64,000 bases of DNA from Vulcanimicrobiota bacterium (GTDB lineage Bacteria > Vulcanimicrobiota > Vulcanimicrobiia > Vulcanimicrobiales > Vulcanimicrobiaceae), in contig CAVRQT010000003.1 in the NCBI GenBank assembly GCA_963723515.1, positions 896,001 through 960,000 on the forward strand, read 5' to 3'. Shown here one piece after another: positions 15,372 to 35,281 of this stretch. The notes under the pieces are model-generated. The model saw only the letters and a list, made by a program, of their open reading frames with translations, was not told the origin of the DNA and did no database searches. The position numbers and the translations under genes are program-made. Position 1 is the first letter of the stretch; every line of letters begins with the position of its first letter.

Positions 15372-16340
15372 CTACCTGCTGTGGTTGACTAGGTGCGCCA
15401 CGAAGGCGATTACTTCCGCCGCCGGCACGAGAATCAGTTGGCAGAGAATCCAGCCAATGATGGCCGTCAGCGCGAGGTAGAAGACCATCGCCTTGACGTC
15501 GCGCTGCGGCCGCTCTCCTTTGACCGCTTCATCAACGATGATCGACGACGTTGGATCGACGAAGAGCGTAAACGCAATCGTTCCGATCCCGTTGATGATG
15601 CCGGAGATTCCGATCGCGGTGCGAGCCACGTTGACGTCAATCACGCTCGCATAATACGCGGCCACGACGCCGATTGCATAGATGCCGGTGACGACGACAT
15701 TGAAGATCAGCAGGCGCTTGGGAACCTCGCGCGCCGAGAAACTCAGCAGCTCGCTGAGAGCGGGCCAGCGCAGATGGCGCAGCAGATCGACAATGACGCG
15801 TGGGTCGAAAAGACGTACCAGCGAATGCGGCACCGACTTCGTGCGTTCGAACGATCGGACACCGCGCACGTAGAGCTCGGTAAACATCGGCAGCATCAGG
15901 CTCCCCAAGATCGTGCCGACGAGACCGGCCAGCACGATCGCGCGCAGTTGCCAATCAAACGTATGGCGGATTTGCGCGATGGGCGCGCTTGCGCCAGCGG
16001 CATTCGTATGGAGCGTGATGACGCGAATCGCATTTCCCGCGCGGTCCGATAACGGTCCCAGCATCAGCGTATAGACGAGCGTTGCGAGACGGCTCGCGGT
16101 GACGAACAAATTGAAGAGCGCGATCGAGGTCGCGATTCTTCCCGTGCGTACTCCGGCAAGCCGCGCCGCATACGCTCCGATTTGGATCGCTTGCACGACG
16201 ACGTTGATCGCCAGCGCGACGCCGAGTTGCCAAGTCCAGAACGGGATCAGAGGAGATTCCGAATGAGCCGGCGTGTCTGCGCGTCGCGACGATTTTTCGC
16301 CACTTCTAGGAACGAGGACGGACGCAATGCCAGAGCGCAT
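15372..16340 (-). CDS. amj: Lipid II flippase Amj family (DUF2837); start uncertain because the ATG lies inside a repeat element
   Basis: AYAARLAGVRTGRIATSIALFN...SR, SGIINGIGTI.FTLFVDP. Confidence 0.75.
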   Translation of the reverse strand: MRSGIASVLVPRSGEKSSRRADTPAHSESPLIPFWTWQLGVALAINVVVQAIQIGAYAARLAGVRTGRIATSIALFNLFVTASRLATLVYTLMLGPLSDRAGNAIRVITLHTNAAGASAPIAQIRHTFDWQLRAIVLAGLVGTILGSLMLPMFTELYVRGVRSFERTKSVPHSLVRLFDPRVIVDLLRHLRWPALSELLSFSAREVPKRLLIFNVVVTGIYAIGVVAAYYASVIDVNVARTAIGISGIINGIGTIAFTLFVDPTSSIIVDEAVKGERPQRDVKAMVFYLALTAIIGWILCQLILVPAAEVIAFVAHLVNHSR

Positions 16341-16417
16341 TGTGGCCGCCGCAGTAACGACGAAGTGGCGGAAAAGCGCGCGGCGATCGGGCGCGTACGG
16401 TTCGTTCGGAAGCTCCT
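16251..16417 (+). repeat. Long stem-loop repeat element, copy 1 (MITE/structured-RNA-like)
   Basis: Arms TTCCGAATGAGCCG/CGGTTCGTTCGGAA. Core CGATTTTT..TTC.AGG..CGAGGA.GG..GCAA.G..C.TTGTG..AAC..GAA..AAAAGCG is shared with 28069 and 35115. Confidence 0.8.
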
Positions 16418-16418
16418 A

Positions 16419-17675
16419 CTATGCGGCGCTGCGATTAAAGTCCAGCTGCGCTTCGTCGACCGGCCCGAGTACGCATAAGCCCAATTGGTCTTCGCGCAGC
16501 AGTTCGTTCGCCAGCATCTGAATCTCATCGGAACTGACGGCTTCGATACGGCTCTCGATTTCTTCGGTGGTCAGGTTGCGGCCGAGTGAGAACTCACTGC
16601 GTCCAAGGCGGATCATTCGGCTCGAAGTGCTCTCGAGCGAAAGCGTAAGGTTACCCTTGATGTGTTCTTTTGCGAGGCGAAGCTCATCTTCGCCGACCTT
16701 CTTGTCGCGTAATTTTGCGAGTTGATCGCGCACGACGCTGATGCATTCGCGCACGTTGCCGGGCGAGGTTCCTGCATAGACGGCAAAAAGCCCGGCGCCG
16801 CGATAAGCCGCCTGAAACGAGTAAACGGTGTATACTAAACCGCGCTTTTCACGGATCTCCTGAAAGAGCCGGCTCGACATGCCACCACCTAGAATTGTAT
16901 CCATAACGGAAAGCGCGTACCGGCGCTCGTCTCGGACCGAAAGGCCGCGCGTTCCGAGAACAAGGTGTGCTTGCTCGCTATCCTTCGTCCGAAAGAGCGT
17001 CGAGGGCGTCGTCGTCGGATCTTCAGGCTCGGGCAAGTCGCATTGCCCTTTGAATTCGACAAACGCGGAGCCGAAGAGTTCGACAATTTCCGCGTGTTTG
17101 ACATGGCCGGCGGCGGCGACGACGACCGAGTTGGGAGCGTAGCGCCGGCGCATGTGTTCCTTCAGATTGTCGCGCGTCAGCGACGTCACCGTGTCGGCAA
17201 AACCGATCGTCGGCGCGCCGAGGCTCGAATCGCTCCACATCGTCTGGATGAAGAGATCGTGGATCAGCTCATCGGGCGAGTCGTCGTACATCTTGATCTC
17301 TTCCAAGATGACGCGCTGCTCTTTTTGCAGTTCGGTTGCGTCGAAGGTCGAATGCAAGAACATATCGGTCAGCACGTCGACCGCTAGGGGAACGTGGTGG
17401 TCGATCACCTTCGCGTAATAGCACGTTGTCTCTTTATCGGTGAAGGCGTTCAGATTGCCGCCGACGCCGTCCATTTCTTCGGCGATCACGCGAGCGCTGC
17501 GACGCTTCGTGCCTTTGAAGAGCATATGCTCGACGAGGTGCGAGATGCCGCGCTCCTGTGCGCTTTCAACGGCCGAACCAACATCCGCCCAGATGCCGAT
17601 TGCTGCGGAGCGAACGTGCGGCATCGTCTCCGTTATAATGCGGACGCCGTTCTCCAGAGTCGTTTTACGGTACAT
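16419..17675 (-). CDS. M16 family zinc peptidase (pitrilysin/processing protease)
   Basis: HLVEH (HxxEH), LNAFT, GGGMSSRLFQEIREKRGLVY. Confidence 0.92.
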   Translation of the reverse strand: MYRKTTLENGVRIITETMPHVRSAAIGIWADVGSAVESAQERGISHLVEHMLFKGTKRRSARVIAEEMDGVGGNLNAFTDKETTCYYAKVIDHHVPLAVDVLTDMFLHSTFDATELQKEQRVILEEIKMYDDSPDELIHDLFIQTMWSDSSLGAPTIGFADTVTSLTRDNLKEHMRRRYAPNSVVVAAAGHVKHAEIVELFGSAFVEFKGQCDLPEPEDPTTTPSTLFRTKDSEQAHLVLGTRGLSVRDERRYALSVMDTILGGGMSSRLFQEIREKRGLVYTVYSFQAAYRGAGLFAVYAGTSPGNVRECISVVRDQLAKLRDKKVGEDELRLAKEHIKGNLTLSLESTSSRMIRLGRSEFSLGRNLTTEEIESRIEAVSSDEIQMLANELLREDQLGLCVLGPVDEAQLDFNRSAA

Positions 17676-17686
17676 CGAGGTTGACT

Positions 17687-18238
17687 TCAGATTGGCGGAA
17701 CCGCAGAATGCCCCTTTGATTGGTCGCGCAAGGCATCGCGCGCCCAACTTGCATCCCAATACATCGCGCTGCTCGCCGGCGGGCGGTCTTCCCGACGCAC
17801 CGTCACTGAAAAGACGGTTCGTTCGGTCGGCTGCGCAAGGTCACCAGAAACGACTGCGCCTTTGCCGACGCTCAGCGGTACGACGCACCACAGATCGACT
17901 TCCTCAACGGGCGCAGCATCGAACGCTTGCGTGACGATCGCGGACACTTCGTTCAAGAAGAGCGCTCGCGTGAGGGGTCGATGGAACTTCACGCCGGAGA
18001 GCACGATGCCGGCAATTTGATGTGATCCGGAGCCATCGACGTAAATTCGCAGGATTTGCGCCTCCCAGCGCCGCTCGAAGAGTCGCTCACCGATTCGCAC
18101 CGCAGTGTCTTTTCTCGTACCGAATGCCCGCGCGTGCGCGTTGACGACATTGAGTGCCGGCGTCTGCGCTGATGCGCTTTGCATGGCGACGCCTAGCGAC
18201 AACGCGAGAAGAACGAGCGCACTAATACGTCTGGGCAA
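17687..18238 (-). CDS. Secreted hypothetical protein
   Basis: Signal peptide ending ASA, overlaps the proS stop. Confidence 0.6.
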   Translation of the reverse strand: MPRRISALVLLALSLGVAMQSASAQTPALNVVNAHARAFGTRKDTAVRIGERLFERRWEAQILRIYVDGSGSHQIAGIVLSGVKFHRPLTRALFLNEVSAIVTQAFDAAPVEEVDLWCVVPLSVGKGAVVSGDLAQPTERTVFSVTVRREDRPPASSAMYWDASWARDALRDQSKGHSAVPPI

Positions 18239-19685
18239 AATACGCTTGAACGGTCGCCGGCTCGCCGCATGCGACGCACGTTGCAGCGGGTTCGCGCAGT
18301 TCTCGTAACACTCGCGTCGTTGCGCTTGTGCGCGCTTTTACGCCGGCTTCGCATTCCGGCCGGTTGCAAAACGGAATGTCCACCATTCCGGCGCGCGACT
18401 CGCACAACTTGAAAAACTCGTCGCGATCGCTTACGACATAGGTGTGCGCGTCGAGAAAGGCTTTGGCTTGCGCATGCAGCGAGCGCTGAACGTCGAGGAG
18501 CATTTCACGAAGCCGCGGCGCAAGCTCCGAACGCGAGACGGAGACCTTCGCGCCGGCTTCTCCCTTTGTCTTATCGCGACGCACGAGCGTAACGCTCTGC
18601 GCCTGAACGTCGCGCGGACCAATTTCGAGCCGCACCGGTACGCCCCGCATCTCCCATTCACTGTACTTCCAGCCTGGCGTGTAATCACGGTCATCGAGCC
18701 GTATCCGAAAATCGGCGCGCAGTTCACGCGCAACTTCGCGCGCCTGGGCGAGCACTTCTGTATCGCTTCCTTTGATGATCGGCACGATAACGGTTTCGAT
18801 CGGCGCTAGCTGAGGCGGCACGCGCAGCCCGCGGTCATCTCCGTGCACCATGATCATACCGCCGAGCATCCGCCACGACATGCCCCACGATGTCGTATAA
18901 ACGTGCTTGACGGATTGATCCACATCCGCGAACTTGATGTCGTACGCCTTCGAAAAATTTTGCCCCAAATCGTGTGAGGTGGCCGACTGCAACGCTTTCC
19001 CGTCCGGCATCAACGCTTCGATCGCGAACGTTTCAACCGCCCCCGGGAAACGCTCGGATGCGCTCTTTCGCCCGGCATAGACGGGCACGCCGACGACATC
19101 TTCCGCAACTTCGCGATAGACCTCAAGCATTCGCAGCGTTTCTTCGCGTGCTTCAGCAGCGGTGGCGTGCGCCGTGTGCCCTTCTTGCCAGAGGAACTCC
19201 ATCGTGCGCAGGAACGGGCGCGTGGCCTTCTCCCAGCGCACCACATTTGCCCATTGGTTGATCAACACCGGAAGGTCGCGGTGCGATTGAATCCACTTCG
19301 CGTACATCACGCCGATGATCACTTCCGATGTCGGGCGGATCGCCAGCCGCTCGGTGAGTTTCTCTTGGCCGCCTTGCGTCACCCAAGCCACTTCCGGCGC
19401 AAAACCTTCAACGTGCTCTGCTTCTTTAACGAGCAGATGCTCCGGAATCAGCAGTGGAAAGTATGCATTTTCATGGCCCGTCGCTTTAAAGCGTTGATCG
19501 AGCGCTTTCTGCAAATTTTCCCAAATGCCGAATCCGTATGGCCGAAGAACGACGCAGCCGCGCACGGGCGAATACGAAACGAGCTCGGCTTTGAGCGTCA
19601 CTGCCGTGTACCAAGCCGACAGATCCGCCGCTTTCGGCGGAATTTCGGTAACGAGCGGCTCGAGTTGCTCTAAGCTCTCGGACAT
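18222..19685 (-). CDS. proS: Proline--tRNA ligase (archaeal/eukaryotic type)
   Basis: HVEGFAPEVAWVT, IRPTSE, FLRTMEFLWQEGHTAH, C-terminal YFAQTY. Confidence 0.96.
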   Translation of the reverse strand: MSESLEQLEPLVTEIPPKAADLSAWYTAVTLKAELVSYSPVRGCVVLRPYGFGIWENLQKALDQRFKATGHENAYFPLLIPEHLLVKEAEHVEGFAPEVAWVTQGGQEKLTERLAIRPTSEVIIGVMYAKWIQSHRDLPVLINQWANVVRWEKATRPFLRTMEFLWQEGHTAHATAAEAREETLRMLEVYREVAEDVVGVPVYAGRKSASERFPGAVETFAIEALMPDGKALQSATSHDLGQNFSKAYDIKFADVDQSVKHVYTTSWGMSWRMLGGMIMVHGDDRGLRVPPQLAPIETVIVPIIKGSDTEVLAQAREVARELRADFRIRLDDRDYTPGWKYSEWEMRGVPVRLEIGPRDVQAQSVTLVRRDKTKGEAGAKVSVSRSELAPRLREMLLDVQRSLHAQAKAFLDAHTYVVSDRDEFFKLCESRAGMVDIPFCNRPECEAGVKARTSATTRVLRELREPAATCVACGEPATVQAYFAQTY

Positions 19686-19754
19686 GACCGCCGTCCATTA
19701 GCCCGCTCGCGCTGATGGGCCTGCCGCTGTGCTATGTTGAACGGAGATCGCAGT

Positions 19755-20351
19755 ATGCCGAAGTTGACTCGTATCTACACGCGTACCGGCGACGAAGGCA
19801 CGACGGGATTAATCGGCGGTGGTCGCGTGAAAAAAAACGACTTGCGCATCGCCGCGTATGGAACGGTCGACGAATGCTCGAGCGCAATCGGGCTTGCACG
19901 AACGGCGCTGCGCGAAACGCGCACGACCGATTCGCGCGCCGGTCGATTGGATCGATGGCTCGCATGGACGCAAGACGCGCTTTTCAATCTTGGTTCGGAT
20001 CTCGCTACGCCCGTTGAAAAACGCTGGGAAGGCATGCCGCTTACAAGCGCCGGCGATGTCAAAGCGCTCGAGCGTGCGATCGATGAAGCACAAAATGATC
20101 TGCCGCCGCTCGACAACTTTATCCATCCCGGCGGCAGTTATGCCGGCGCGTTCTTGCATCTTGCACGGACGATTTGCCGGCGCGCAGAGCGCATTCTCGT
20201 TACGCTTTCCGAGAAAGATACGATTGCGCCGGAAGTGATGCAATACGTGAACCGTCTCTCCGATGCGCTCTTTGTCTGGGCGCGCTGGGTCAATACGGTG
20301 CTCGGCGAACCGGAATATCTCTGGAATCCAGAGACGAAGCCGCCGGAGTAA
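19755..20351 (+). CDS. Cob(I)alamin adenosyltransferase, PduO type
   Basis: IYTRTGDEGTT, YGTVDE, ARTICRRAER, NRLSDALF. Confidence 0.92.
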   Translation: MPKLTRIYTRTGDEGTTGLIGGGRVKKNDLRIAAYGTVDECSSAIGLARTALRETRTTDSRAGRLDRWLAWTQDALFNLGSDLATPVEKRWEGMPLTSAGDVKALERAIDEAQNDLPPLDNFIHPGGSYAGAFLHLARTICRRAERILVTLSEKDTIAPEVMQYVNRLSDALFVWARWVNTVLGEPEYLWNPETKPPE

Positions 20352-20394
20352 AAGCCGGTAGGGCGGCTATGATGCTTCTGCGAACGCACGCCTG

Positions 20395-21885
20395 ATGTCG
20401 CTCGCGTCACGATTATTTTCGACGACGCAGATCGAGGAGTTGCGCGCGCTCGGCGCGCGCACAATCCTCAAGCGCGCGCTGACCGGCAAAGATCTCATCG
20501 CGATCGGTCTAGGCGCAATGATCGGCGGCGGAATCTTCACGACAATTGGGCCGGGCATCGCCAAAGCCGGTCCCGCGGTTATGGTCGCGTACGTGCTCGC
20601 CGGCGCTGCGTCGTTTTTCGCGGCGCTCTGCTACGCGGAGCTCGGTTCGATGGTGCCGATTGCCGGGAGCGCTTACACCTACGCGTACGCGACGCTCGGC
20701 CAAATCATCGCGTGGATTATCGGTTGGGACTTGATCCTGGAGTACGGGATCAGCGCCGCCCCGGTTGCCCAACAGTGGTCCGCGTACTTCCAAGACGCGT
20801 TGCTGAATCTCTTTGGTTGGAGCATGCCGGCGTGGGGCGCATCCGCCAAATACGTCTACAGCGGAGCGTGGTGGCACATGGACTTGGCGCACTCGCAATA
20901 TGACATCTTAGGAGCGCTTTTCGTGCTGCTGCTTTCCGCGCTGCTTGCGATCGGCGTCCGCGAAACGGCTACTTCTAACAACACGTTCGTCGTTGTCAAA
21001 GTCGGCGCGCTGATCGTGTTCATCATCGCCGGCCTCTTCTTGTTTCACGCGAGCAATCTGCGGCCGTTCGCACCGCTGGGGTGGGTCGCCGGAGGACCCG
21101 GAGGACTAGGGATCATCCCGGCAGCAGCGCTCGTGTTTTTTTCGTACATCGGTTTTGACACGGCAACGACCGCCGCCGAGGAATGCAAGAACCCGCAAGT
21201 CGACATTCCGGTTGGTGTTCTTGGGTCGCTGCTGATCGGCACGGTGCTCTACTGCTCGGTTGCGATTGTGCTTCTCGGTGTCGTTCCGTGGACGCACGTC
21301 GATCAAAAAGCGGCGCTTGCCGTCGCCCTTCGCCCGCTGCACAGCGCCGTTCTTGAATGGATCATCATCGCGGGCGCCCTCGCTGGAACTACCAGCGTCG
21401 CGTTGACTTCGTTATTCGGCCAGAGTCGAATCTTTTACGTGATGGCACGCGACAAGATGCTGCCGCCCTTTGTGGCTCGGATTCATCCGAAATTCCGCAC
21501 GCCCGCGCGCATGACGATGATCACCGGCTTCGTCGTTGCGTTGCTGACTGTGATCGTGCCGCTCGATTGGCTCTTAGAGCTCGTCAATATCGGAACGTTC
21601 AGCGCCTTCATCATCGTCTGTGCCGGTGTAGTGTTCTTGCGCTACCGGCGCCCTGACTTGCCGCGAAAATTCCGCTCGCCGTTTGTGCCGCTGTTTCCGA
21701 TCCTCGGCATCGTGCTCTCGCTGTACTTAGCGACACAGGGCCTCGGAAAATTCACGTGGTACCGCTTCGTCGGCTGGCTGATCGTGGGCTTGATCGTCTA
21801 TCTGGCTTACGGTTTTCGAAAATCCGATCCGGCAAAGATCAATATTCTCGAACCGGAGCCCGAAGCGCTCACAATCGAAGCGTAA
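20395..21885 (+). CDS. APC family amino acid permease
   Basis: GAMIGGGIF, CYAEL..P.AGSAY, FFSYIGFD. Confidence 0.92.
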   Translation: MSLASRLFSTTQIEELRALGARTILKRALTGKDLIAIGLGAMIGGGIFTTIGPGIAKAGPAVMVAYVLAGAASFFAALCYAELGSMVPIAGSAYTYAYATLGQIIAWIIGWDLILEYGISAAPVAQQWSAYFQDALLNLFGWSMPAWGASAKYVYSGAWWHMDLAHSQYDILGALFVLLLSALLAIGVRETATSNNTFVVVKVGALIVFIIAGLFLFHASNLRPFAPLGWVAGGPGGLGIIPAAALVFFSYIGFDTATTAAEECKNPQVDIPVGVLGSLLIGTVLYCSVAIVLLGVVPWTHVDQKAALAVALRPLHSAVLEWIIIAGALAGTTSVALTSLFGQSRIFYVMARDKMLPPFVARIHPKFRTPARMTMITGFVVALLTVIVPLDWLLELVNIGTFSAFIIVCAGVVFLRYRRPDLPRKFRSPFVPLFPILGIVLSLYLATQGLGKFTWYRFVGWLIVGLIVYLAYGFRKSDPAKINILEPEPEALTIEA

Positions 21886-21888
21886 GCG

Positions 21889-22236
21889 TCAGCGCGAGAT
21901 TTTATCGCGCAGTTGCGCTGCGAAGGTCGCAGCATCCTGATCCGGCTCTAGCTGCACGATGATCTCTTTGTATGTTTCGTCGCGCGTCGTTATGGCGAGA
22001 CAGTTTTCTCCATTCGAGTAATCGAGAAACGCCCAACCGCCGTGGCCGAAGAACGTGCCGGCCATCTTAAAGCCCGGGGCGCTCGTGCCCATCAGCTTGC
22101 GCCAAGCGTCGCGCCAACCGCTGCGGTCTTCGATTGAGGCATCAACCACGTGCGAATACGGTACGTGAAGCGACCCATGCAGCGCGAAGAATTTTTCAAA
22201 CGGCGTCAATTCGATCGTCAGGCTCGTCCGAGTCAA
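21889..22236 (-). CDS. Hypothetical protein (true start may be the ATG at 22252 with an indel)
   Basis: 115-aa ORF in operon orientation, GTSAPG..AGTF segment. Confidence 0.55.
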   Translation of the reverse strand: MTRTSLTIELTPFEKFFALHGSLHVPYSHVVDASIEDRSGWRDAWRKLMGTSAPGFKMAGTFFGHGGWAFLDYSNGENCLAITTRDETYKEIIVQLEPDQDAATFAAQLRDKISR

Positions 22237-22309
22237 GGATAATTCTGGCCATGACGAGTGCTACTGAAGAACCGCCTGCGAGTTACAACGAACGCCTAGC
22301 GCGTGGAAG

Positions 22310-22786: not shown

Positions 22787-22791
22787 CGACT

Positions 22792-23931: not shown

Positions 23932-23932
23932 T

Positions 23933-26265: not shown

Positions 26266-26267
26266 CG

Positions 26268-26294
26268 CTGTCACCCTGAGCTATTGCCGAAGGG
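26268..26294 (+). repeat. Solitary REP-like unit
   Basis: CTGTCACCCTGAGCTATTGCCGAAGGG matches the family consensus CTGTCACCCTGAGCTTGTCGAAGGG. Confidence 0.7.
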
Positions 26295-26301
26295 TTCTTC
26301 A

Positions 26302-27192
26302 TTATTGAACGCTCAGGACGCCGGCTAAATGCAGCGATCCAAAGAATGCCATGCCGCCGAAAAGATAGGAATCAAACCGATCTAAGACGCCGCCATGACC
26401 GCCGATCACCGTGCCGGTATCTTTCACGCCTGCGTCGCGCTTCAGGGCCGACTCAACGAGATCGCCGGCCTGCGCCGCAATGCAGGTCAGCGCACCGATC
26501 AACGTGCTTTGCCACCAAACGAGGTGCAATGGACCATAGAAGCTGGCACAGTAGCCGACGGCCGTAACGACGATCAGTGCGCCCAGCGCGCCTTCAACCG
26601 TTTTCTGTGGTGAAACGGCCATGAGCGGCGTACGGCCGGCGACGCCACCGACCAGCATCGCCATGATGTCGGTCAGCGCGATCAGAACGATGACGAAAAT
26701 CGTGTACATGACGCCGATACCCGGCAGCATGCGGATAAAAATGAAATACGTGAGCAGCTTACCGATGTAGAGCACGGCTAAGAGCGTATAAGCGGTGCGC
26801 GCAAAGTAGCCTTTTTGTTCGCCGTACATGCCCAGCCAAAACGAAGCGATGATGACCGCGGCGAGCAAAACGCCTTCCCACTTATGCAGCAAGTCGAATG
26901 TCGCCAGGACGACGTACGCCGTCACGGCGACCGCGGCAACGGGCAGTTCGAGCCCTTGGCCTTTACGCTCGCAAAGCTGTGCGAGCTCCCAAAGCGCGAT
27001 CCATCCGATGATCAGGACGAGCGCGTAAAACGCATAGTTGTAAAAGACCGCGCCGATACCCAGCGCGGCCAGCCCCACACCGACGGCGATCCGCCGGTTT
27101 AAGCTCCCCCAAACCGCCGTTGACGCTTTTGAAACTCGATAAGTGCTCGTCGAAAGTGTTCCTTCGTAAAATCCGGCCAATAGACGTCGCAC
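26302..27192 (-). CDS. cdsA: Phosphatidate cytidylyltransferase (start uncertain)
   Basis: SPQKTVEG, GDLVESALKRDAGVKD, GHGGVLDRFDS. Confidence 0.92.
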   Translation of the reverse strand: MRRLLAGFYEGTLSTSTYRVSKASTAVWGSLNRRIAVGVGLAALGIGAVFYNYAFYALVLIIGWIALWELAQLCERKGQGLELPVAAVAVTAYVVLATFDLLHKWEGVLLAAVIIASFWLGMYGEQKGYFARTAYTLLAVLYIGKLLTYFIFIRMLPGIGVMYTIFVIVLIALTDIMAMLVGGVAGRTPLMAVSPQKTVEGALGALIVVTAVGYCASFYGPLHLVWWQSTLIGALTCIAAQAGDLVESALKRDAGVKDTGTVIGGHGGVLDRFDSYLFGGMAFFGSLHLAGVLSVQ

Positions 27193-27845
27193 ATATACAA
27201 TTCCGTATAGGCAACTTGGTAGAGCAGAAAGTTCGAGAGCCGCTGTTCGCCTCCCGGGCGAATCAAGATATCGGGGTCCGGAAGCTGCGATGTGTAGAGG
27301 TACGACGCGATCGATTCCTCATCGATCGAATGCGGATCGAGCCGGCCCTGCGCCGCATCGGTTGCCATGGCGGCAATCGCATCGCGCAACTCGGCACGAG
27401 CGCTGTAATTGACCGCGAGATTGAGCAATACGCCGTGATTCGAAGCCGTCTCTGCGACGAGCCGCTCGAGCGCCGCAACCGAAGAACGGGGCAGCGCGCG
27501 GTAACGGCCCAAAAGGTTGACGCGAACGTCGTTGCGCTTCAGCTCCGCAAGCTCGCTCTGCGCGAAGTAGACGCAGAGGTCGAGCAGCAGCGAAATTTCT
27601 TTTGAATCGCGGCGCCAGTTTTCTGTCGAGAAGCCGTAGACCGTCAGAATGCGGACGCCGAAATCGCGCGCCGCGTGCGTCGCTTCCCGAAGCGCGATGA
27701 TGCCGCGGCGATGGCCTTCGATCGCCGGCAAATGACGCTCCCGCGCCCAGCGACGATTGCCGTCCATGATGATCGCGACGTGGCGCGGTGCGTGCGCCGA
27801 GTCGAGCTGCGTGGTCGGAAGTGCCTTAACGCTCGATTCGTTCAT
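27099..27845 (-). CDS. uppS: Undecaprenyl diphosphate synthase
   Basis: HVAIIMDGNRRWA, FSTENWRR, RLSNFLLYQ.AY. Confidence 0.95.
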   Translation of the reverse strand: MNESSVKALPTTQLDSAHAPRHVAIIMDGNRRWARERHLPAIEGHRRGIIALREATHAARDFGVRILTVYGFSTENWRRDSKEISLLLDLCVYFAQSELAELKRNDVRVNLLGRYRALPRSSVAALERLVAETASNHGVLLNLAVNYSARAELRDAIAAMATDAAQGRLDPHSIDEESIASYLYTSQLPDPDILIRPGGEQRLSNFLLYQVAYTELYMCDVYWPDFTKEHFRRALIEFQKRQRRFGGA

Positions 27846-28074
27846 ACCAATCGTATCCGGCCACGACCTCAAGCTCAGATTCTTGCTTGCGGGGGCGTAT
27901 CCGCAGCGCCCGCAACTTTCCGCATCCAAAGGCGGGAACGACCGGACGCAAGATCGTCAAGGTGATCGGCTTACCCTCGCTTTGCAAAAGACGCCGCGCT
28001 TGCACCTCAGGCATCAAGATCAGGTCCGCATGATGAGCTGGCCGCGGTGCGGCGTGCCGTGGGTCTGCTGCCAT
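27826..28074 (-). CDS. Small hypothetical protein upstream of uppS
   Basis: 82-aa ORF in the operon, overlaps the uppS start. Confidence 0.55.
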   Translation of the reverse strand: MAADPRHAAPRPAHHADLILMPEVQARRLLQSEGKPITLTILRPVVPAFGCGKLRALRIRPRKQESELEVVAGYDWYERIER

Positions 28075-28185
28075 TATCCGCCTGCGATTTTTTCGTGATT
28101 CGAGGCGCGAGGAAGGAGCAACGCCGTTCCGTTGTGACTGAGGAGCAACGCTGAAGCACGGGAAAAGCGTAGGTGGAGAATGGCA
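28069..28185 (+). repeat. Long stem-loop repeat element, copy 2
   Basis: Arms TGCCATT.TCCGCCTGCG / CGTAGGTGGA.AATGGCA, shared core. Confidence 0.75.
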
Positions 28186-28207
28186 ACGTGATTCACGGTG
28201 CGCCGCA

Positions 28208-28765
28208 CTACACTTCCAAAATTTCTTTTTCTTTGCTGGCGCCCAGCGTGTCGATCTCTTTGACGTACTTGTCCGTTAATTTTTGCAATTGGTCTTGGAA
28301 GCGCTTGTTGTCGTCTTCCGTAATCTCGTGCGTCTTCAATTGGGCGCGAATGTCGTCGTGGTAATGATGGCGGATGTTGCGGATAGCAACTCGGCCGTCT
28401 TCCGCTTTCTTGCGAACGACTTTCACGAGCTCTTTGCGGCGATCTTCGGTGAGCGGCGGGACGCTCAAGCGGATCGTGCTGCCGTCGACATTAGGCGTCA
28501 GTCCCAAGTCGCTCTTCTCGATCGCTTTTCGTATGTCGCCCACGGTGTTCCGGTCGAAGGCGGTGATCGCAAGGGATCGAGGATCGGGCACGCTGACGCT
28601 GGCCACTTGTTTGAGGGGCAACGATGATCCGTATGCTTCGACGTGAAGCCGGTCGAGCAACGCCGGCGTGGCACGGCCCGTGCGAACCGATGCGAACTCC
28701 GCGCGCGTCGCTTCGATCGCCTTTTGCATCTTGGATTCCGCTTCTTTGAAGAGTTGCTCGGTCAT
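28208..28765 (-). CDS. frr: Ribosome recycling factor
   Basis: [25 protein letters not shown]. Confidence 0.96.
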
Positions 28766-29562
28766 CGCGTTTGGCCTGCGGCCGGTACGACTGCATCGGG
28801 CACCTCACTCGCGGCCACACTGCGCATCCTTTGCGAAGCGGCGACTTTCCCGACGAAGGTGCCGATCTGTTCGCCCCACACGACGCGCCGAATGTTGCCG
28901 ACAACGGACATATCGAAGACGATCATCGGCAAATTGTTGTCCATGCAAAGCGTTAACGCCGTACTGTCCATCACCTCGAGCCCGCGCTGCAACACTTCCA
29001 AGTAATCGAGCTGCTCGAAGCGATCCGCACTCGGATGCTTCTTTGGATCGGCGGAGTAAATGCCGTCCACCTTTGTCGCCTTGAGAATCGCTTGCGCGTT
29101 GACTTCTACCGCGCGTAATGCTGCTGTAGTATCCGTCGTAAAGTACGGGTTGCCCGTTCCGGCCGCAAAGATCACGACGCGGCCCTTTTCGAGATGCCGG
29201 ATTGCACGGCGCCGGATATACGGTTCGGCAATTTCGTGCATCGCAATTGCGGTTTGCACGCGCGACGGCGCGCCCATGCGCTCGAGCGCATCTTGGAGCG
29301 CCAGTGCGTTGATGACGGTCGCCAACATTCCCATGTAGTCCGCAGTGGCGCGATCCATCCCATGGGCCTCGTGCAACTTCCCGCGCCAAATGTTGCCGCC
29401 GCCGACGACGACCGCCACGGAGACGCCGTCGTGGGCGACTTCGGCAATCTGCCGCGCCATGCTCTGCGTCGTCTCAACGTCAACGCCGGTTTCCGTGCCG
29501 GAGAAGGCTTCTCCGGAAATCTTCAGCAGAACCCGAGCGTACTTGGGCGCCGTGCTCTTTAT
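28762..29562 (-). CDS. pyrH: UMP kinase (probable ATA start)
   Basis: [39 protein letters not shown]. Confidence 0.95.
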
Positions 29563-30167
29563 TGCGAATCTCCTAACGCAAAGCGCGCGAAGCGCCGTAT
29601 GACGATGCGTTCGCCGAGGATGCCGACAGCACTCGCGATCAATTCGCCGACCGTCAACGTGTCGTCTTTGACGAAGGGCTGATCGACCAGGCACGTTTCC
29701 TCGTACCAGCGACGCAACTTGCCCTCTACGATGCGTTGCGCGATCTCTGCAGATTTTTCTGCCGGCACATCCTCTGCGAATTCATCACGTTTGGCGGTAA
29801 GGACATCGGCCGGAACACTTTCGCGGTCGATGTAAAGCGGTGACATGGCGGCGACATGCATCGAAATATCACGCGCTAAGGCCACGAATTTCTCGCTGCG
29901 CGCGACAAAGTCGGTCTCGCTGTTCAGCTCAACCAGCACGCCAATTTTTCCGCCGGGATGAATGTAGGAGGCGATCAGGCCTTCATCTGCGGTACGCTCG
30001 GCCTTCTTTGCCGCCTGCGCTTGACCACGCTCGAGGAGCAATTTTTGTGCGTGTTCCGTATCGCCGTTCGCTTCAATCAGCGCATTGCGGCAATCCATCA
30101 TCGGCGCTTGCACCTTATCACGCAGCGCTTTGATCTCGCTCGGACTCGGTTGGTAGGTCGTCGTCAT
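29559..30167 (-). CDS. tsf: Elongation factor Ts (short form)
   Basis: [18 protein letters not shown], 202 aa. Confidence 0.95.
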
Positions 30168-30946
30168 GAACCGGCGGCCGCCTCCTCCACAGCGGGGACC
30201 GATTCGGCGTAGGCGCTGTAGTCGATCGTTTCACCGTCGCCCTCGATGTCGAGCGAACTCTCGGTTTCGGTCTTGCCCTCGATGATCGCATCCGCAATCT
30301 TGCTGACCATCAATTTGACGGCCCGAATCGCATCATCATTGCCGGGGATCAAATAATCGATTTCATCGGGATCGCAATTCGTGTCGACGACCGCAATAAT
30401 CGGAATCTTCAATTTGCGAGCCTCGAGCACCGCGATGCGCTCTTTCTTCGGATCCACAATGAAGACCGCATCCGGCAAGCGATGCATCTCTTTGATGCCG
30501 CCCAAGAAGCGCTCCAGCCGGCTCAACTCATCCTGCAGCTTGCTGACTTCCTTCTTGGGAAGCATCTCGAAGCGGCCTTGTTGCTTCATCTCCTCAAGCT
30601 CGCGCAATCGCGAAATTCGCTTTTGGATCGTCGAAAAGTTCGTGAGGGTACCGCCGAGCCAGCGCTGGTTCACGTAAAAGGTGCCGGCGCGCTCCGCTTC
30701 GTCTTTAATAACGTCTTGGGCTTGCTTCTTCGTACCAACGAAGAGAATGATCTTATTTTCGCGCGCCATCTGACGCAAAATGTCGTAGACCTGGCGCAGG
30801 CGCGCCACAGTTTGCGAGAGATCGATGATGTAGATGCCGTTGCGCTCTTGGAAGATGTAGGGCTTCATCTTCGGATTCCAGCGGCGCGTCTGGTGTCCGA
30901 AGTGCACGCCCGCCTCAAGCAGCGCCTTCATTGAAATGACCGACAT
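30164..30946 (-). CDS. rpsB: 30S ribosomal protein S2
   Basis: [37 protein letters not shown]. Confidence 0.98.
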
Positions 30947-31063
30947 GGCGGTAAGTTTCTCCTAACTGGTCCCAGGCGGTCGGCCCTCCTGGCGCCGCCT
31001 ACGTGGAACCATCGCCACCCTTCATCCTGAGGGGTGAAGTCCAAACTGGGGCCGAGTATAGCA
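30947..31063 (-). promoter_or_regulatory. rpsB promoter (extended -10) and structured 5' leader
   Basis: TGcTATACT on the minus strand at about 31063-31055, then hairpins (CACCC..GGGTG; TGGTTCC..AGGCGG..CCGCCT.GGACCA) and AGGAG. Confidence 0.55.
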
Positions 31064-31131
31064 CGCGTCCGAAACGAGCGTCCAGCGTAAAGGCCGCAGG
31101 ACCGGGTCGCGGAACTGGAAACGGGATTCTC

Positions 31132-32136
31132 ATGCGCTGTTTAGTGACGGGCGGCTTAGGATTCATCGGATCGAACTTCATTCGGCTGCTTTTGCACGAG
31201 CGGCCGGACGCGCGCGTGATTAATCTGGACGCGCTAACCTACGCAGGCAACCCCGAGAACCTGCGCGATGTCGAAGCCGACCCGCGATACCGGCTCGTCA
31301 AGGGAGATATCGCCGACGCTGCCACCGTGCGCGAGTCCCTTGCCGATGGTGCCGATGCAATCGTCAACTTCGCGGCCGAAACGCATGTCGATCGCTCGAT
31401 CTTGGAGCCCGAGGTCTTTCTGAAGACAGATATCCTCGGCACGCATGTGCTCTTGGAAGCCGTGCGCGAGAAAAAGATTCCGCGCTACGTTCAAGTGTCG
31501 ACGGATGAAGTTTACGGCGACGTACCGAGCGGACTCTCAACCGAAGAGTCGCCCTTACGGCCGCGCAGTCCGTATAGCGCCAGCAAGGCGGGCGCGGATC
31601 TTCAGGTGCTTGCGTACTGGCATACCTATCAAACGCCGGTGATGATCACTCGCGGCTCCAACACCTACGGGCCATATCAGTATCCCGAGAAATTGATCCC
31701 GCTCTTCATCACCAATCTCTTCGAAGATCGACCGGTGCCGGTGTACGGCGATGGCAAACAGATACGCGACTGGGTGCATGTCGAGGATCACGCGCGTGGC
31801 ATTCTTCATATTCTCGAGAACGGCGAAGCGGGAAACGTGTACAACATCGCCGGCGAAAATCTGCGCACGAATCTTGAGATTACCGAGCGGTTGATCTCGC
31901 ACTGCGGGCGATCGCCGAACACGCATATCACTCATGTGCTCGACCGCGAAGGACACGACCGGCGTTATGCGCTCGATACCGGCAAAGCGCGCTCCTTGGG
32001 GTGGCAGCCCCGCATCGATTTTGAGAGCGGTCTAGGCGCAACCGTGGAATGGTATCGCGCCAACGAGCAGTGGTGGCGCCCAATTCGCTCGGGCACATTT
32101 ACCGAATACTACCGGCGTCAATATGCACACCGCTAA
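31132..32136 (+). CDS. rfbB: dTDP-glucose 4,6-dehydratase
   Basis: VTGGLGFIGSNF, AAETHVDRSI, STDEVYG, YSASK, YQYPEKLIP. Confidence 0.95.
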   Translation: MRCLVTGGLGFIGSNFIRLLLHERPDARVINLDALTYAGNPENLRDVEADPRYRLVKGDIADAATVRESLADGADAIVNFAAETHVDRSILEPEVFLKTDILGTHVLLEAVREKKIPRYVQVSTDEVYGDVPSGLSTEESPLRPRSPYSASKAGADLQVLAYWHTYQTPVMITRGSNTYGPYQYPEKLIPLFITNLFEDRPVPVYGDGKQIRDWVHVEDHARGILHILENGEAGNVYNIAGENLRTNLEITERLISHCGRSPNTHITHVLDREGHDRRYALDTGKARSLGWQPRIDFESGLGATVEWYRANEQWWRPIRSGTFTEYYRRQYAHR

Positions 32137-32884
32137 CCCGCCGAAGGGCGTCATACTCGCGGGCGGATTGGGTTCGCGTTTGCGGCCTCTCACAAAGGTG
32201 ACGAACAAGCATTTGCTGCCGGTCTACGATAAGCCGATGATCTACTATCCGCTCGAGACGTTGCGCAGAGCCGGCCTCGACGACATCATGATCGTGACGG
32301 GCGGAAACTCGGCGGGCGAATTTTTGCGCCTGTTGGGGAACGGCAGAGAATTTGGCCTCAGGGACATCTACTACACGTACCAAGAGGGTGAGGGCGGCAT
32401 CGCTGATGCGCTCAAGCTCTGCGAACATTTCGCCGAAGGCAGCCGCGTGGTCGTCATTCTGGGCGACAACATCCTCGAGGAAGATATCTCGCCGTACGTC
32501 GAGCGATTCTGCCTTCAAGAGAGCGGCGCGCGCCTTCTATTAAAGGAAGTTCCGGATCCCGAGCGCTTCGGCGTGCCGGAGCTGAACGGCGAGCGCATTC
32601 TGCGCATCGAAGAGAAGCCGGTCGAACCAAAGAGCCGCTACGCCGTAACCGGCATCTACATGTACGACGAAAACGTTTTCGACATCGCCCATAACTTGCG
32701 GCCTTCAGCGCGCGGCGAACTCGAAATTACCGACGTCAACAACGAGTACATCCGCCGCGGCAATCTGTGTTACGACGTTCTCTCAGGATGGTGGACGGAT
32801 GCGGGTCAATTTGAGAGCCTGTATCTCGCCTCGAACCTTGTGGCGAAACAGCGCCGCAAGAACCGGGTCAAGACGAAGGTTTAG
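32123..32884 (+). CDS. Glucose-1-phosphate thymidylyltransferase, short RmlA/SpsI type
   Basis: LAGGLGSRL.PLT...NKHLLPVYDKPM, LGDN, PSARGELEITD. Confidence 0.9.
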   Translation: MHTANPPKGVILAGGLGSRLRPLTKVTNKHLLPVYDKPMIYYPLETLRRAGLDDIMIVTGGNSAGEFLRLLGNGREFGLRDIYYTYQEGEGGIADALKLCEHFAEGSRVVVILGDNILEEDISPYVERFCLQESGARLLLKEVPDPERFGVPELNGERILRIEEKPVEPKSRYAVTGIYMYDENVFDIAHNLRPSARGELEITDVNNEYIRRGNLCYDVLSGWWTDAGQFESLYLASNLVAKQRRKNRVKTKV

Positions 32885-33044
32885 ACGGCGGTTCGGGCAC
32901 CGCGCGCTCAACACGCCGAATCTGCACGCTCTCGGGCGCATCGATGCCGAGCTTGACCTGGCCGCCACCGATCTCCAGGACAACGATGCGCACCGCATCG
33001 CCGATCGTCAATTCCTGACCCACGCTTCGCGTCACCACGTACAT
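32868..33044 (-). CDS. csrA: Carbon storage regulator CsrA-like RNA-binding protein, 58 aa (not in the ORF track)
   Basis: Hand translation MYVVTRSVGQELTIGDAVRIVVLEIGGGQVKLGIDAPESVQIRRVE... aligns without gaps to CsrA, including R6, G9, IGD, QV, AP and R44. GAGG 7 nt upstream. Confidence 0.85.
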   Translation of the reverse strand: MYVVTRSVGQELTIGDAVRIVVLEIGGGQVKLGIDAPESVQIRRVERAVPEPPSKPSS

Positions 33045-33161
33045 TGAAGAACCTCGCCTTGGAGCGCCATCCTAGACCGGATGGTGAAACCTCTGCGGCA
33101 GCGCCCCGGTATCTCCGTCAGAGTGAAAATTTGCGGACTCTCGCGTTAGGAGAAATTTCTC

Positions 33162-33698
33162 GTGGATTGTTATTTTCACAGTCACGTTCCCTCGGTTGCC
33201 CGCTGCTCGGATTGCCTTAAGCCGATCTGCGCGACATGCCATGCCGGCGACGGGATGTGCCCGAGCTGCCGTCTGGCGACGAAAATCGACAGCGCGAACG
33301 CCTCACGTCAAGAGCTTGGCGGAAGCGTTCCTCAGCGACAGAAGCCTGCGCGCGTCGCGACGATCGGAGATTCGGTTGAATCGCGCGCCCTCGTCGCGCT
33401 GGGTTACCCGTTGCCGCCGCTTGCCGTCCTCGCGCTCTTCGATCGCAAACAATCCCCCTATCTGCGGCGCCAGGTCTACCAGTCGCTTGGGTTCACGGGG
33501 GGAATGGCGCTCTTCGGCCTCGTTCTCTCGTGGATGCTCGCCATACCGTTCCTCAACATTAGCGCGATGTTGATCTTGGCGGTGCTTTTTCCGGTTTGGC
33601 TGGTTGCCAGCGTCGTTTATGGGATCAAGACCTACAACGGCGACGATGTACGCATTCCAATCGTCAGTGATTGGATCGAGGAACGTCTGCCGGCGTAG
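33162..33698 (+). CDS. B-box-like zinc finger plus DUF4870-like membrane domain protein
   Basis: C-x2-H..CxxC..CxxC..CxxC N-terminus, 3 TM, YNG.DVRIPIV end. AGGAG RBS. Confidence 0.65.
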   Translation: MDCYFHSHVPSVARCSDCLKPICATCHAGDGMCPSCRLATKIDSANASRQELGGSVPQRQKPARVATIGDSVESRALVALGYPLPPLAVLALFDRKQSPYLRRQVYQSLGFTGGMALFGLVLSWMLAIPFLNISAMLILAVLFPVWLVASVVYGIKTYNGDDVRIPIVSDWIEERLPA

Positions 33699-35100
33699 CA
33701 TTCACGAACTCACTGTAACGCGCTAAGTAGCGCCGGGCGGCGGTATCGTGATCCAAGACCGGCGGCGGATAACCGTTTCGGCCGAAGAGCGGCAGCGCCG
33801 GCTGCCTCTCCTTATTCGGGGCCGGCACCGCATGCGCGAGCTCCGCGATCCACTTTTTCGCATACGCTCCCTCGGGATCGAACCGGCGCGCGCCCTTGAC
33901 CGGATTGTAAATCCGGGGGTATGCGGCTAAGTCGGCGCCGACGCCGGCGATCCACTGCCAATTGCCGGCTGCCAGCGCCGGTTCGTCTTCGATCAAGAAG
34001 CGATCCCATTCGGCAAGTCCGACGCGCCAATCAACTTCCAGATCGAAGCACAGAAACGACGCCGCGATCGAGCGCGCGTGCGGATGCATCCATCCCGTGG
34101 CGTGTAATTGCCGAATGCCGGCGTCAACAAGCGTAAAGCCGGTCATGCCTTGCTTCCATGCCTCGAGATGCTCGTGCGCGGCCAGAAACGGAAAGCGGCG
34201 CATCTTCGCCTGGAGCGATTCACTCTGCGCGTCGGGCTGATACCACGCGAGCTGCAAGAAGAAATCGCGTTGCGCTAAGGATCGAAGGAAGCGGCGCAGC
34301 GACGCCTTCTCTTCAGCAAGCAAGAACGGATCATCGGCGCGACGCTTCGTTTCACGCACGACGGTTCGTGCCGCGATCGTCCCAAAGCAAAGGTGCGCGG
34401 CCAAATGCGAGGTGCGGTCGTCGGCCGGCACGTTGACCGCGACATCGTACTGCACGGCATCCTGCCGCAAGAACGTTGTCAGCCGCCGCATTGCCCCACT
34501 AGGCGTCGCGTCACCGCCGATCGGCTGCGCGTTGAATTCGCTTTCCGAGGGCAGCGGTTCGCTGACGACGCTTGGCTTTGCGAAACGCCGGAAGAGCGGC
34601 GCTTCGTGCGAGACGACGTCAATCGCACGCCAGGCATCGATATAAGGCGCAAGGGCGCGGTAGCCTTCGCCTGCTCCAAGTTTTGCGGCCGCCGTTTCTC
34701 CCGGCGGAACGGCAGGCGCATCATGAACGATCGGCGTCGCAAGGCCGCGTTCCTCAAGCGCGGCACGCAATTCGGCCTCTTCTTTCATAGCGGCGGCATC
34801 GTATGAGGCGCTCCAAAGCGCCGCGTTCGGTTTCAGCTCCTCGACGAGCTGCAACATCGTCGCGCCGAGCGGACCACGCCGTACGATCAGTGCCGATCCT
34901 TCTTCCCGTAACGCTGCATCGAGCGCCGCCACAGCGTGAACAAAAAAGGCCGCCCGGCGAGGGGACGTCGCAATGCGCGAACGCAAGAGCGGATCGACGA
35001 TCAACACGGGTACGATTGCCCCGTGTCGCGCCGCCTCGGCTAAACCGGCATGATCTTCGAGACGCAAGTCGCGCCCGAACCGGAAGAGGACGGAACGCAA
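33664..35100 (-). CDS. Cryptochrome/photolyase family protein, divergent
   Basis: RDLRLEDH, GMTGFTLVDAGIRQL..TGWMH, DWR, WQW, RIYNP, FDPEG. Confidence 0.85.
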   Translation of the reverse strand: MRSVLFRFGRDLRLEDHAGLAEAARHGAIVPVLIVDPLLRSRIATSPRRAAFFVHAVAALDAALREEGSALIVRRGPLGATMLQLVEELKPNAALWSASYDAAAMKEEAELRAALEERGLATPIVHDAPAVPPGETAAAKLGAGEGYRALAPYIDAWRAIDVVSHEAPLFRRFAKPSVVSEPLPSESEFNAQPIGGDATPSGAMRRLTTFLRQDAVQYDVAVNVPADDRTSHLAAHLCFGTIAARTVVRETKRRADDPFLLAEEKASLRRFLRSLAQRDFFLQLAWYQPDAQSESLQAKMRRFPFLAAHEHLEAWKQGMTGFTLVDAGIRQLHATGWMHPHARSIAASFLCFDLEVDWRVGLAEWDRFLIEDEPALAAGNWQWIAGVGADLAAYPRIYNPVKGARRFDPEGAYAKKWIAELAHAVPAPNKERQPALPLFGRNGYPPPVLDHDTAARRYLARYSEFVNATPADVPRSNH

Positions 35101-35114
35101 TGCCTGGTTCTAGG

Positions 35115-35278
35115 GAAACCTCTGATTCAGTCTTCGTGGTTCAGCCTCGTGGCGATTTTTTGCCGAGTTCGAGGCCCGAGGACGGGCGCAATGCAGCACC
35201 ATTGTGGCCGCCGCAGGAACACTGAACTCGGCAAAAAGCGACCGAGGACGGGCCGCGTGAGACTGGATCAGAGGTTTC
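35115..35278 (+). repeat. Long stem-loop repeat element, copy 3 (MITE-like, 19-bp terminal inverted repeats)
   Basis: GAAACCTCTGATTCAGTCT / AGACTGGATCAGAGGTTTC, inner TTTTTGCCGAGTTC / GAACTCGGCAAAAA, shared core. Confidence 0.8.
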
Positions 35279-35281
35279 TAA

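Follow-up and report, generated by a model that had tools for sequence, protein, structure and literature searches.

Background

[quoted passage not shown] Three long hairpins, at positions 16251, 28069 and 35115 of a 64,000-nt stretch of a Vulcanimicrobiota genome (contig CAVRQT010000003.1, positions 896,001 to 960,000; the whole stretch is called the window below), are probably copies of a non-autonomous foldback mobile element of this kind, about 160-170 nt long, which would be moved in trans via its folded tip. They belong to a new MITE-like foldback family with unusual features.

The Correia or NEMIS repeats of Neisseria resemble this family in a size below 200 bp, lack of an open reading frame (ORF), inverted-repeat ends, TA termini and target duplication (which is perfect at only two of six clean sites in the present family), and also in their intergenic dispersal, predicted long stem-loop transcripts and the lack of an identified transposase (PMC2229807). 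They occur in a short form and a form with an insert of about 50 bp (107 and 155 bp; PMC2229807), to be compared with forms of about 167 and 220 nt in the present family. The present element differs in being one whole helix, the arms of which vary with compensation while the tip is conserved over five phyla. Its mismatches are almost exclusively G-U on one strand, its orientation follows replication in the source genome of the window, and it has no sequence similarity to Correia, as judged from descriptions and not from the Correia sequence.

The ERIC repeats (IRU, RU-1) are likewise imperfect palindromes, of about 127 bp, with TA termini and target-site duplications; they lie in operon spacers, are co-transcribed and have no transposase known from the same source (PMC2229807). 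Their orientation-dependent effect on mRNA is experimental (PMC2229807). They differ from the present family in sequence and hosts, being confined to enterobacteria and their relatives, whereas the present tip spans phyla. RUP of Streptococcus pneumoniae is a hairpin-forming MITE of about 107 bp with a TA target and shares its terminal repeats with IS630-Spn1 (PMC2229807), whereas the ends of the present elements are unlike those of IS630-like elements in the same genomes. According to the review by Delihas, the transposases of bacterial MITE-like repeats are without experimental support (PMC2229807). The REP/REPIN-RAYT repeats and the IS200/IS605 elements, such as IS608, resemble the family as hairpin repeats that are presumed to move as single-stranded DNA in a strand-specific manner and in connection with the replication fork (PMC6006769, PMC3116915). 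The present family, in contrast, has neither a GTAG or CGTC tag nor an adjoining Y1 gene, and its folding strand is on the opposite replication strand.

The elements of the window and their family

The three copies, their tips and one internal feature are located in the window as follows.

16250..16419, + strand: element copy of subtype A', hairpin at 16251-16417; fold of -105.2 kcal/mol; covariance-model match of 156.3 bits; site empty in the same-genus genome G151
16304..16364, + strand: conserved tip of copy 16251 in the subtype A form, TTCTAGGAACGAGGACGGACGCAATGC-loop-GCATTGTGGCCGCCGCAGTAACGACGAA (from the sequence and conserved alignment columns)
28046..28209, + strand: element copy of subtype B; covariance-model match at 28045-28212, 104.9 bits; site empty in G151
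28099..28155, + strand: copy 28069 tip, which has the tandem G-A steps of the general cross-phylum form, CGAGGAAGGA-GCAACGCC...CCGTTGT-GACTGAGGAG (from motif comparison)
35113..35281, + strand: element copy of subtype A, hairpin at 35115-35278; fold of -102.5 kcal/mol; covariance-model match of 170.5 bits; site empty in G151
35168..35226, + strand: conserved tip of copy 35115 in the subtype A form (from the alignment)
35238..35256, - strand: within copy 35115, a local hairpin of 6 bp with TTTTT after it on the mRNA-sense strand; terminator-like, in this copy only of the three

On the + strand, each of the three forms one long hairpin (16251 and 35115 with z -9.0 and -10.7, respectively, and the energies given above; 28069 with -55.3 kcal/mol, z -6.1). 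For none of the three was any of 200 shuffles as good. Refolded with its flanks, copy 28069 has -96.6 kcal/mol on the sense strand versus -68.6 kcal/mol on the antisense strand, and contains 12 G-U pairs. The preliminary description of the window had reported elements of 167, 117 and 164 nt at these places. All three were found there, but the hairpin at 28069 is about 162 nt long and 28069-28185 is its inner part. The core string said to be common to the three is present together with the covariation of its stems, including the switch between CAATG/CATTG and CAACG/CGTTG. The non-canonical pairs are, as had been noted, mostly G-U on the + strand (9, 12 and 9 versus 2-3 on the - strand). The outer arms had been taken to be unrelated, which is not the case: those of 16251 and 35115 align, and the subtypes have homologous arms.

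Each copy adjoins a stop codon, in agreement with the same description. The 3' end of copy 16251 overlaps the complement of the TAG stop of an M16 peptidase gene (16419-16421), the frr stop (complement of CTA, 28208-28210) is at the 3' base of the copy 28069 hairpin, and the TAG stop of a TonB-like gene (complement at 35282-35284) is 3 nt past copy 35115, which is bracketed by TA at 35111-35112 and 35279-35280. The spacers that host the copies are those between housekeeping genes: M16 peptidase and amj, frr and uppS, and the TonB-like gene and photolyase.

The three elements belong to a family of 14-15 copies in the source genome of the window (G000), an assembly of 2.11 Mb in four contigs that is 88% complete, so that absences from it are weak evidence. 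A motif scan gave 13 matches, two of them by chance, and nhmmer detected 13 copies in full, besides one that is divergent. A covariance model, which the preliminary description had proposed, was made from 13 copies. It returned 14 sense-strand matches of 79.5-182 bits, a 47.9-bit match to one more hairpin, the tip of which differs, and one chance-level match. The copies are about 160-170 nt long, have no ORF and are spread over three contigs at distances of at least 7 kb. They fall into subtypes A (six copies, including 35115, with 78-90% mutual identity), A' (four, including 16251) and B (three, including 28069), with one distant copy.

A separate hairpin of about 160 nt on the minus strand of another contig of the source genome (C2:737607-737765) is flanked by CTAG on either side and shares the strand asymmetry of the family (-122 versus -93 kcal/mol). 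Its tip differs and is without the three G-A steps described below; it may represent a sister family with a common outer architecture.

Membership in a known RNA family was rejected: Rfam 15 gave no match in the window at the gathering score, and a search with 12 loci, which represent four phyla, gave only chance-level matches when E values of up to 10 were allowed, namely to miRNA and snoRNA families (E 0.08-9). An integron attC site was also considered. The attC core sites have the consensus RYYYAAC/GTTRRRY, which is not matched by the bases of the element hairpins (AGGAACC...GGTTCCT or GTGCGGCG...CGCCGCAC), and the copies, unlike the cassettes of tandem integron arrays, are dispersed as described above, at least 7 kb apart over three contigs.

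Mobility and target site

Comparison of filled and empty sites directly demonstrates that the elements are mobile. All 16 insertion sites that were compared are empty in congeneric genomes. G151, the flanks of which are 71-83% identical to those of the window, lacks all three window copies and has 30, 23 and 48 nt in place of 170-200 nt; its own copies are located elsewhere, and seven of seven tested sites are empty in the source genome. None of the conclusions is based on the unpublished genome G161. In another genus, six of six insertions of genome G029 are absent from G222 and/or G224, the flanks being 91-97% identical. The G029 copies are 95-100% identical to each other and their similarity stops at about 170-186 nt; therefore, the hairpin is the whole repeat unit. 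The preliminary description had left the choice between a non-autonomous mobile element and a structured RNA, and had suggested a search for empty sites. Because all 16 compared sites proved to be empty, the MITE-like branch is the better supported of the two.

The distribution of the family is patchy. In a sample of the phylum, matches occur in 45 of 151 genomes (43 of 71 in the family of the source genome, the single genome of a second family and none of 78 genomes from 19 other families), with one to at least 18 matches per genome, reverse-strand echoes included; in other genomes the copy number varies from one to more than 30.

Several other origins were considered and rejected. Viral contigs are free of the core pattern, and nothing in a plasmid collection matches a Sphingomonadales copy, which speaks against a phage or plasmid source. 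Genes enclosed by two inverted copies were found in two cases (G033 and G029); the enclosed proteins are unrelated and without a Pfam family, and the copies represent two independent insertions instead of a composite element. The outer helix is not copied from the end of the neighbouring gene, since the arms are common to copies at different sites. The only overlap of an element with its target is the 7-nt TAGGAGT at one site.

Young copies target TA, mostly within CTAG or YTAR and often in a stop codon. TA is present on both flanks of 17 of the 19 G029 copies, and the empty allele has TA exactly at the junction in all six clean sites (CTAG in four, CTAA in one and TTAG in one). Two of the six have a perfect duplication, which is of CTAG, or of TA with G...C as the element ends; each of the other four requires one more small difference. 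The family resembles the described MITEs in several properties: it is small, non-coding and dispersed, its sites are polymorphic between filled and empty, and it has inverted-repeat ends with TA, the whole arms being inverted repeats. Every subtype begins with a purine, so that insertion into the TA of TAA or TAG rebuilds the stop codon in either orientation. In the source genome (60% G+C), the copies abut stop codons by 0-3 nt, according to gene calls that are crude longest-ORF calls. The copies abut stop codons inside operons because the stop is rebuilt and because TA is found mostly at gene ends in a genome of this G+C content.

Two further sites look like footprints of an earlier insertion and loss. 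CTAG-CCGG-CTAG is found at an otherwise empty site of G224 (contig C71, near 18259; locus L207), and CTAG-GCTC-CTAG immediately precedes a resident copy of G029 (L176:16075-16120).

Folding of one strand

Covariation was examined in 52 aligned model matches; the counts are based on 46 distinct rows in sense orientation, with one row of the reverse strand left out. An alignment fitted to the model favours the structure, and controls with slid pairing partners speak against an artefact. Standard pairs occupy 94.9% of the pair cells versus 72.4% in shuffles, both sides have changed in 40 of the 51 pairs, and the covariation score is 0.623 versus 0.18 in shuffles and 0.10-0.14 in the slid controls. 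The covariation noted in three copies persists in 46, with pairing and score exceeding those of the shuffles. The outer helix of 55-60 bp is kept as structure only, its arms differing wholly between phyla and between subfamilies of one genome.

Wobble cells are distributed very unevenly, with 234 G-U against 13 A-C, and G-U exceeds A-C in each of the 46 sequences. The orientation for this count is set by the asymmetric tip and is independent of the helix. Because G-U cells far outnumber A-C cells, it is one particular strand that folds. The sense strand folds better than its complement by 9-33 kcal/mol in 14 of 14 copies of the source genome, and is also the more stable one in 15 of 16 examples from other phyla and in all 18 copies of the alphaproteobacterial genome G175; automated mapping of the hairpin ends by minimum free energy over-extends into the flanks and was left out of the counts. 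Selection on one folded strand, proposed from the three window copies, is strongly supported by the covariation, the G-U excess and the difference in stability.

Mutation bias was considered as a source of the asymmetry. The C-to-T pressure on the leading strand would put G-T on the strand of positive skew, and the observed strand placement is the opposite of this expectation.

The conserved tip

A scan for the exact core pattern in one genome per species found 70 loci in five phyla. They belong to Vulcanimicrobiota/Eremiobacterota (Baltobacteraceae), Sphingomonadales (Novosphingobium, in several strains, Sphingopyxis and Parasphingorhabdus), Elusimicrobia, a metagenome-assembled genome of Planctomycetota and Muribaculaceae. 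With the covariance model, the Planctomycetota genome has at least 30 matches, an Elusimicrobia genome has 20 and the alphaproteobacterial genome 18, counts that include some reverse-strand echoes; a complete Novosphingobium genome and a Muribaculaceae genome have one match each.

In its general form the tip reads C-GA-N-GA-NN-GA, a 7-bp hairpin and GA-NN-GA-N-GA-G, so that three tandem G-A/A-G steps face each other; the hairpin has a loop of 3-7 nt and is closed by an invariant G-U. Covariation is seen in the Watson-Crick steps that separate the invariant G-A steps. Among 50 distinct sequences, the single pair is G-C in 30, A-U in 10, G-U in six, U-A in one and a non-pair in three, and the first pair of the 2-bp step is G-C in 32, A-U in 13 and G-U in five. 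The tip is conserved across phyla in both sequence and structure. Subtype A of the source genome keeps the 5' strand of the tip and has the G-A steps of the 3' strand replaced. An ornate variant of about 220 nt (G222 and G224; L226-L230) has two additional small hairpins, which form an insert of 52 nt within the 5' strand of its tip; the stems of the insert covary between copies, and its loop motifs are conserved (AUCCU and UCCGU-like).

At several Elusimicrobia loci a second, divergent hairpin with a G-A-rich tip adjoins the main copy in inverted orientation (L013:480-576, L035:479-575 and L016:539-640). The Sphingomonadales copies (L059, L052, L021 and L068) are shorter, about 95-130 nt, and are followed by a conserved small hairpin, GCCCGCCCC...GGGG, of which the Eremiobacterota copies have no equivalent. 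A literature search found no such family described in Eremiobacterota or Sphingomonadales; the exact motif was not searched by sequence.

Orientation relative to replication and transcription

The better-folding strand is on the strand of negative GC skew in 14 of the 15 copies of the source genome (two-sided binomial p ~0.001; local skews over 20 kb are noisy). The rule holds for eight of eight copies on contig 3 and five of five on contig 2, and the orientation switches at the turning points of the skew. The skew polarity is the usual one, because dnaA coincides with the minimum of the skew on contig 2. It follows that the sense strand corresponds to the lagging-strand sequence, in spite of its own richness in G (skew +0.13).

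All three window copies are antisense to their minus-strand neighbours, as had been stated, and of the source-genome copies located between co-directional genes 10 are antisense and one is sense. Three copies of this genome adjoin the stop of a gene on the lagging strand, to which they are sense, and still obey the skew rule; for this reason replication predicts orientation better in this genome than transcription does. As a rule for the family, the antisense position fails: in spacers between co-directional genes of G144, G145 and G175, 10 copies are antisense versus nine sense, again by crude longest-ORF gene calls. The rule of replication is followed by 10 of 11 copies in G145, a post hoc fit with replichores inferred from local skews, and no clean rule of orientation is seen in G144, G175 or G033 (for G033, from positions only).

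The replication-linked orientation in the source genome suggests a tie to the replication fork. Orientation biases relative to replication are known for families of insertion sequences (IS; PMC3971601), and IS608 and ISDra2 target the lagging-strand template (PMC6006769).

Search for a transposase

No transposase could be tied to the family. The statement that the window holds no cognate enzyme stands at the level of Pfam, the 67 window ORFs scanned having no match to a transposase, integrase or reverse transcriptase. The transposase domains were found in carriers and their relatives as follows.

Y1_Tnp: found in six of 101 genomes of the family of the source genome, including G029, G033 and G105; not found in G000 and G175
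DDE_3: found in G224 (three intact genes) and G029 (one partial); not found in G033 and G222
DDE_Tnp_1: found in G029 and G224; not found in G000, G151 and G033
DDE_Tnp_1_2: not found in any of the five genomes tested

None of ten Y1 loci checked has an element within 1.5 kb. An enzyme linked to single-copy loci was also looked for, and the neighbours are housekeeping genes in the one Novosphingobium and the one Muribaculaceae genome. Ends common with an autonomous IS, as expected of a MITE derived from IS630, IS5/IS4 or IS200/IS605, were not seen among the loci compared, with one exception: a 15-nt exact match to the end of one subfamily (about 35 nt if read loosely) lies beside a decayed IS200-type tnpA at locus L106.

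The decayed tnpA (L106:1489-1771, contig C14 of G029) is a 65-aa remnant that starts about 30 nt after the hairpin-end-like stretch. The stretch itself directly follows a TAG stop and matches the first 15 nt of the hairpin subfamily.

Surroundings of the window copies

Copy 28069 lies between frr and uppS in the conserved gene row rpsB...pyrH-frr-uppS-cdsA-dxr-rseP-ispG (window 26302-30946). On the minus strand (window 16244-16340), the tip of copy 16251 holds an ATG that shares the reading frame of amj and would add 32 residues to it. The TTG start of amj at the orthologous place in G151 is CTG in the source genome, and the insertion may have altered the amj start.

Two local functions of the hairpins were rejected. 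An intrinsic terminator would have a T run directly behind it, which is absent from all three long hairpins, and only the internal minus-strand site of copy 35115 was flagged. A small peptide encoded in the tip (AGGA, 8 nt, ATG) is contradicted by the length of the loop, which varies by 0-3 nt between copies, and by subtype B, which has no ATG.

Mechanism of movement

The family departs from the usual picture of a MITE in four respects: the tip is fixed and the ends drift, pairing is kept on one strand, the tip spans phyla, and, in at least one genome, orientation tracks replication. The simplest mechanism to cover all four would be, we infer, mobilisation in trans by way of a folded single strand, with the tip as the recognition site. 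An enzyme supplied in trans would recognise one strand by its folded tip, either as single-stranded DNA or possibly as RNA, and would act at the base of the helix regardless of the sequence there. With recognition at the tip and sequence-independent action at the base, both the compensated drift of the arms and the constancy of the tip would be accounted for. Several points weigh against this explanation. Compensatory change in long DNA palindromes can also come from template switching between the arms, without selection on the fold. At four of the six clean sites one more small alteration has to be assumed (a difference of 1 nt, the absence of 5 nt, a surplus of 8 nt, or TG in place of TA), the older G151/G000 site pair L094 is a plain insertion with no TA and no duplication, and in the older copies of the source genome TA is regular only at the sense-strand 3' flank. 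No autonomous partner was found, the ends having no likeness to those of six DDE_3 loci, eight DDE_Tnp_1 loci and five of the ten Y1 loci of carriers. G000, G151 and G033 are without DDE_Tnp_1 and DDE_Tnp_1_2, and G000, which is 88% complete, is also without Y1_Tnp.

Part of this evidence could be accommodated by an ordinary cut-and-paste MITE of a TA- or YTAR-duplicating DDE transposon of the IS630/Tc1-mariner or IS5 type, the enzyme of which binds double-stranded terminal repeats. The hairpin would then be a by-product of long inverted repeats, compensation would come from template switching or gene conversion, and the tip would be a hitch-hiking spacer. The target sites agree with such an element, with TA at both ends of 17 of 19 young copies, TA in six of six clean empty sites and a perfect duplication of CTAG or TA in two of them, and so do the three intact DDE_3 genes of G224, the partial one of G029 and the DDE_Tnp_1 genes of both genomes. 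RUP, the sole bacterial MITE with a proposed transposase, is tied to IS630-Spn1 and to TA targets (PMC2229807). The terminal repeats, however, vary strongly within one genome (three arm types in G029) and the tip is conserved over five phyla; drifting ends with a fixed tip are the reverse of what is predicted for transposases that bind the ends. The ends are also unlike those of any DDE element compared in the same genomes, and G033, which is 98% complete and has at least 18 model matches, is without DDE_3, DDE_Tnp_1 and DDE_Tnp_1_2. Neither the excess of G-U over A-C (234 versus 13) nor the replication-linked orientation is predicted by a double-stranded mechanism, and a DDE origin is considered unlikely. 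Another candidate is a REPIN- or PATE-like element moved as single-stranded DNA at the replication fork by a Y1 HUH transposase (IS200/IS605 TnpA or RAYT), in which case the 'duplicated' CTAG would consist of a target in the left flank and a cleavage site borne by the element at its right end. One strand folds better in every copy examined in the source genome, orientation tracks replication in 14 of 15 copies there, with the skew minimum coinciding with dnaA, and 10 of 11 copies of G145 fit the rule with inferred replichores. Y1_Tnp is present in the two genomes richest in matches, G029 and G033, and also in G105, and the 35-nt stretch like the end of one subfamily adjoins the decayed IS200-type tnpA of G029. 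The targeting of the lagging-strand template by IS608 and ISDra2 (PMC6006769) seems to point the same way, but the better-folding strand, on the lagging-strand sequence, corresponds to the leading-strand template, which is opposite to the IS608 rule. The occurrence of the enzyme does not match that of the element: Y1_Tnp is in six of 101 genomes of the family against 43 of 71 for the element, it was not found in G000 or in G175 with its 18 copies, and none of the ten Y1 loci has an element within 1.5 kb. The ends of the intact IS200-like elements of G033 are unlike the element, and G144, G033 and G175 have no clean rule of orientation. REP/REPIN-RAYT repeats reportedly carry the tag GTAG or CGTC; neither tag was seen at the element ends, nor is the element found as a repeat flanking a Y1 gene. 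Movement by a Y1 enzyme is therefore judged to be rather improbable.

Least probable, and very much so, is a structured RNA that has a cellular role and happens to be dispersed. It could be a small RNA or act in cis as an mRNA element, and its tandem G-A tip would be a motif for protein binding. It would fit the fact that nearly all wobble positions are G-U and not A-C, the covariation of the Watson-Crick steps between the invariant G-A steps, the ornate tip with its two further covarying hairpins and conserved loops, and the conservation of the tip across phyla, and there is a precedent in the ERIC repeats, which are reported to affect mRNA stability depending on orientation (PMC2229807). Against it, all 16 checked sites are dispensable in close relatives, the copies occupy spacers between housekeeping genes, a promoter-like site is present at none of the three window copies, gene orientation is inconsistent outside the source genome (10 antisense versus nine sense in G144, G145 and G175), and Rfam holds no match even when E values of up to 10 are admitted. 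The G-U pairs alone are no sign of RNA, because G-T is the mildest mismatch in single-stranded DNA as well.

The preferred mechanism, recognition of the folded tip by an enzyme acting in trans, may be extended. The tip, with its three tandem G-A steps, 7-bp hairpin and conserved single-stranded flanks, could be a portable recognition module, such that any long hairpin that carries it is excised and inserted as a folded single strand, tied to the fork, in several phyla. The mover could be either an enzyme that has so far escaped recognition or a host factor of conserved type. This extension is judged to be unlikely. If it is true, the mobility system would be defined by a hairpin tip instead of by its ends, and the ornate tips would be structured nucleic acid with an activity of its own.

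Significance

The family inverts the usual picture of a MITE, its ends drifting while the tip is fixed at the distance of phyla and only one strand retains its pairing. The hypothesis of tip recognition can be tested in cultivable carriers, since copies occur in several Novosphingobium strains. For the uncultivated G+C-rich lineages, the family also accounts for a recurring puzzle of annotation, in that long hairpins at the stop codons of essential operons, such as that between frr and uppS, can be neutral insertions which enter TA sites and restore the stop.

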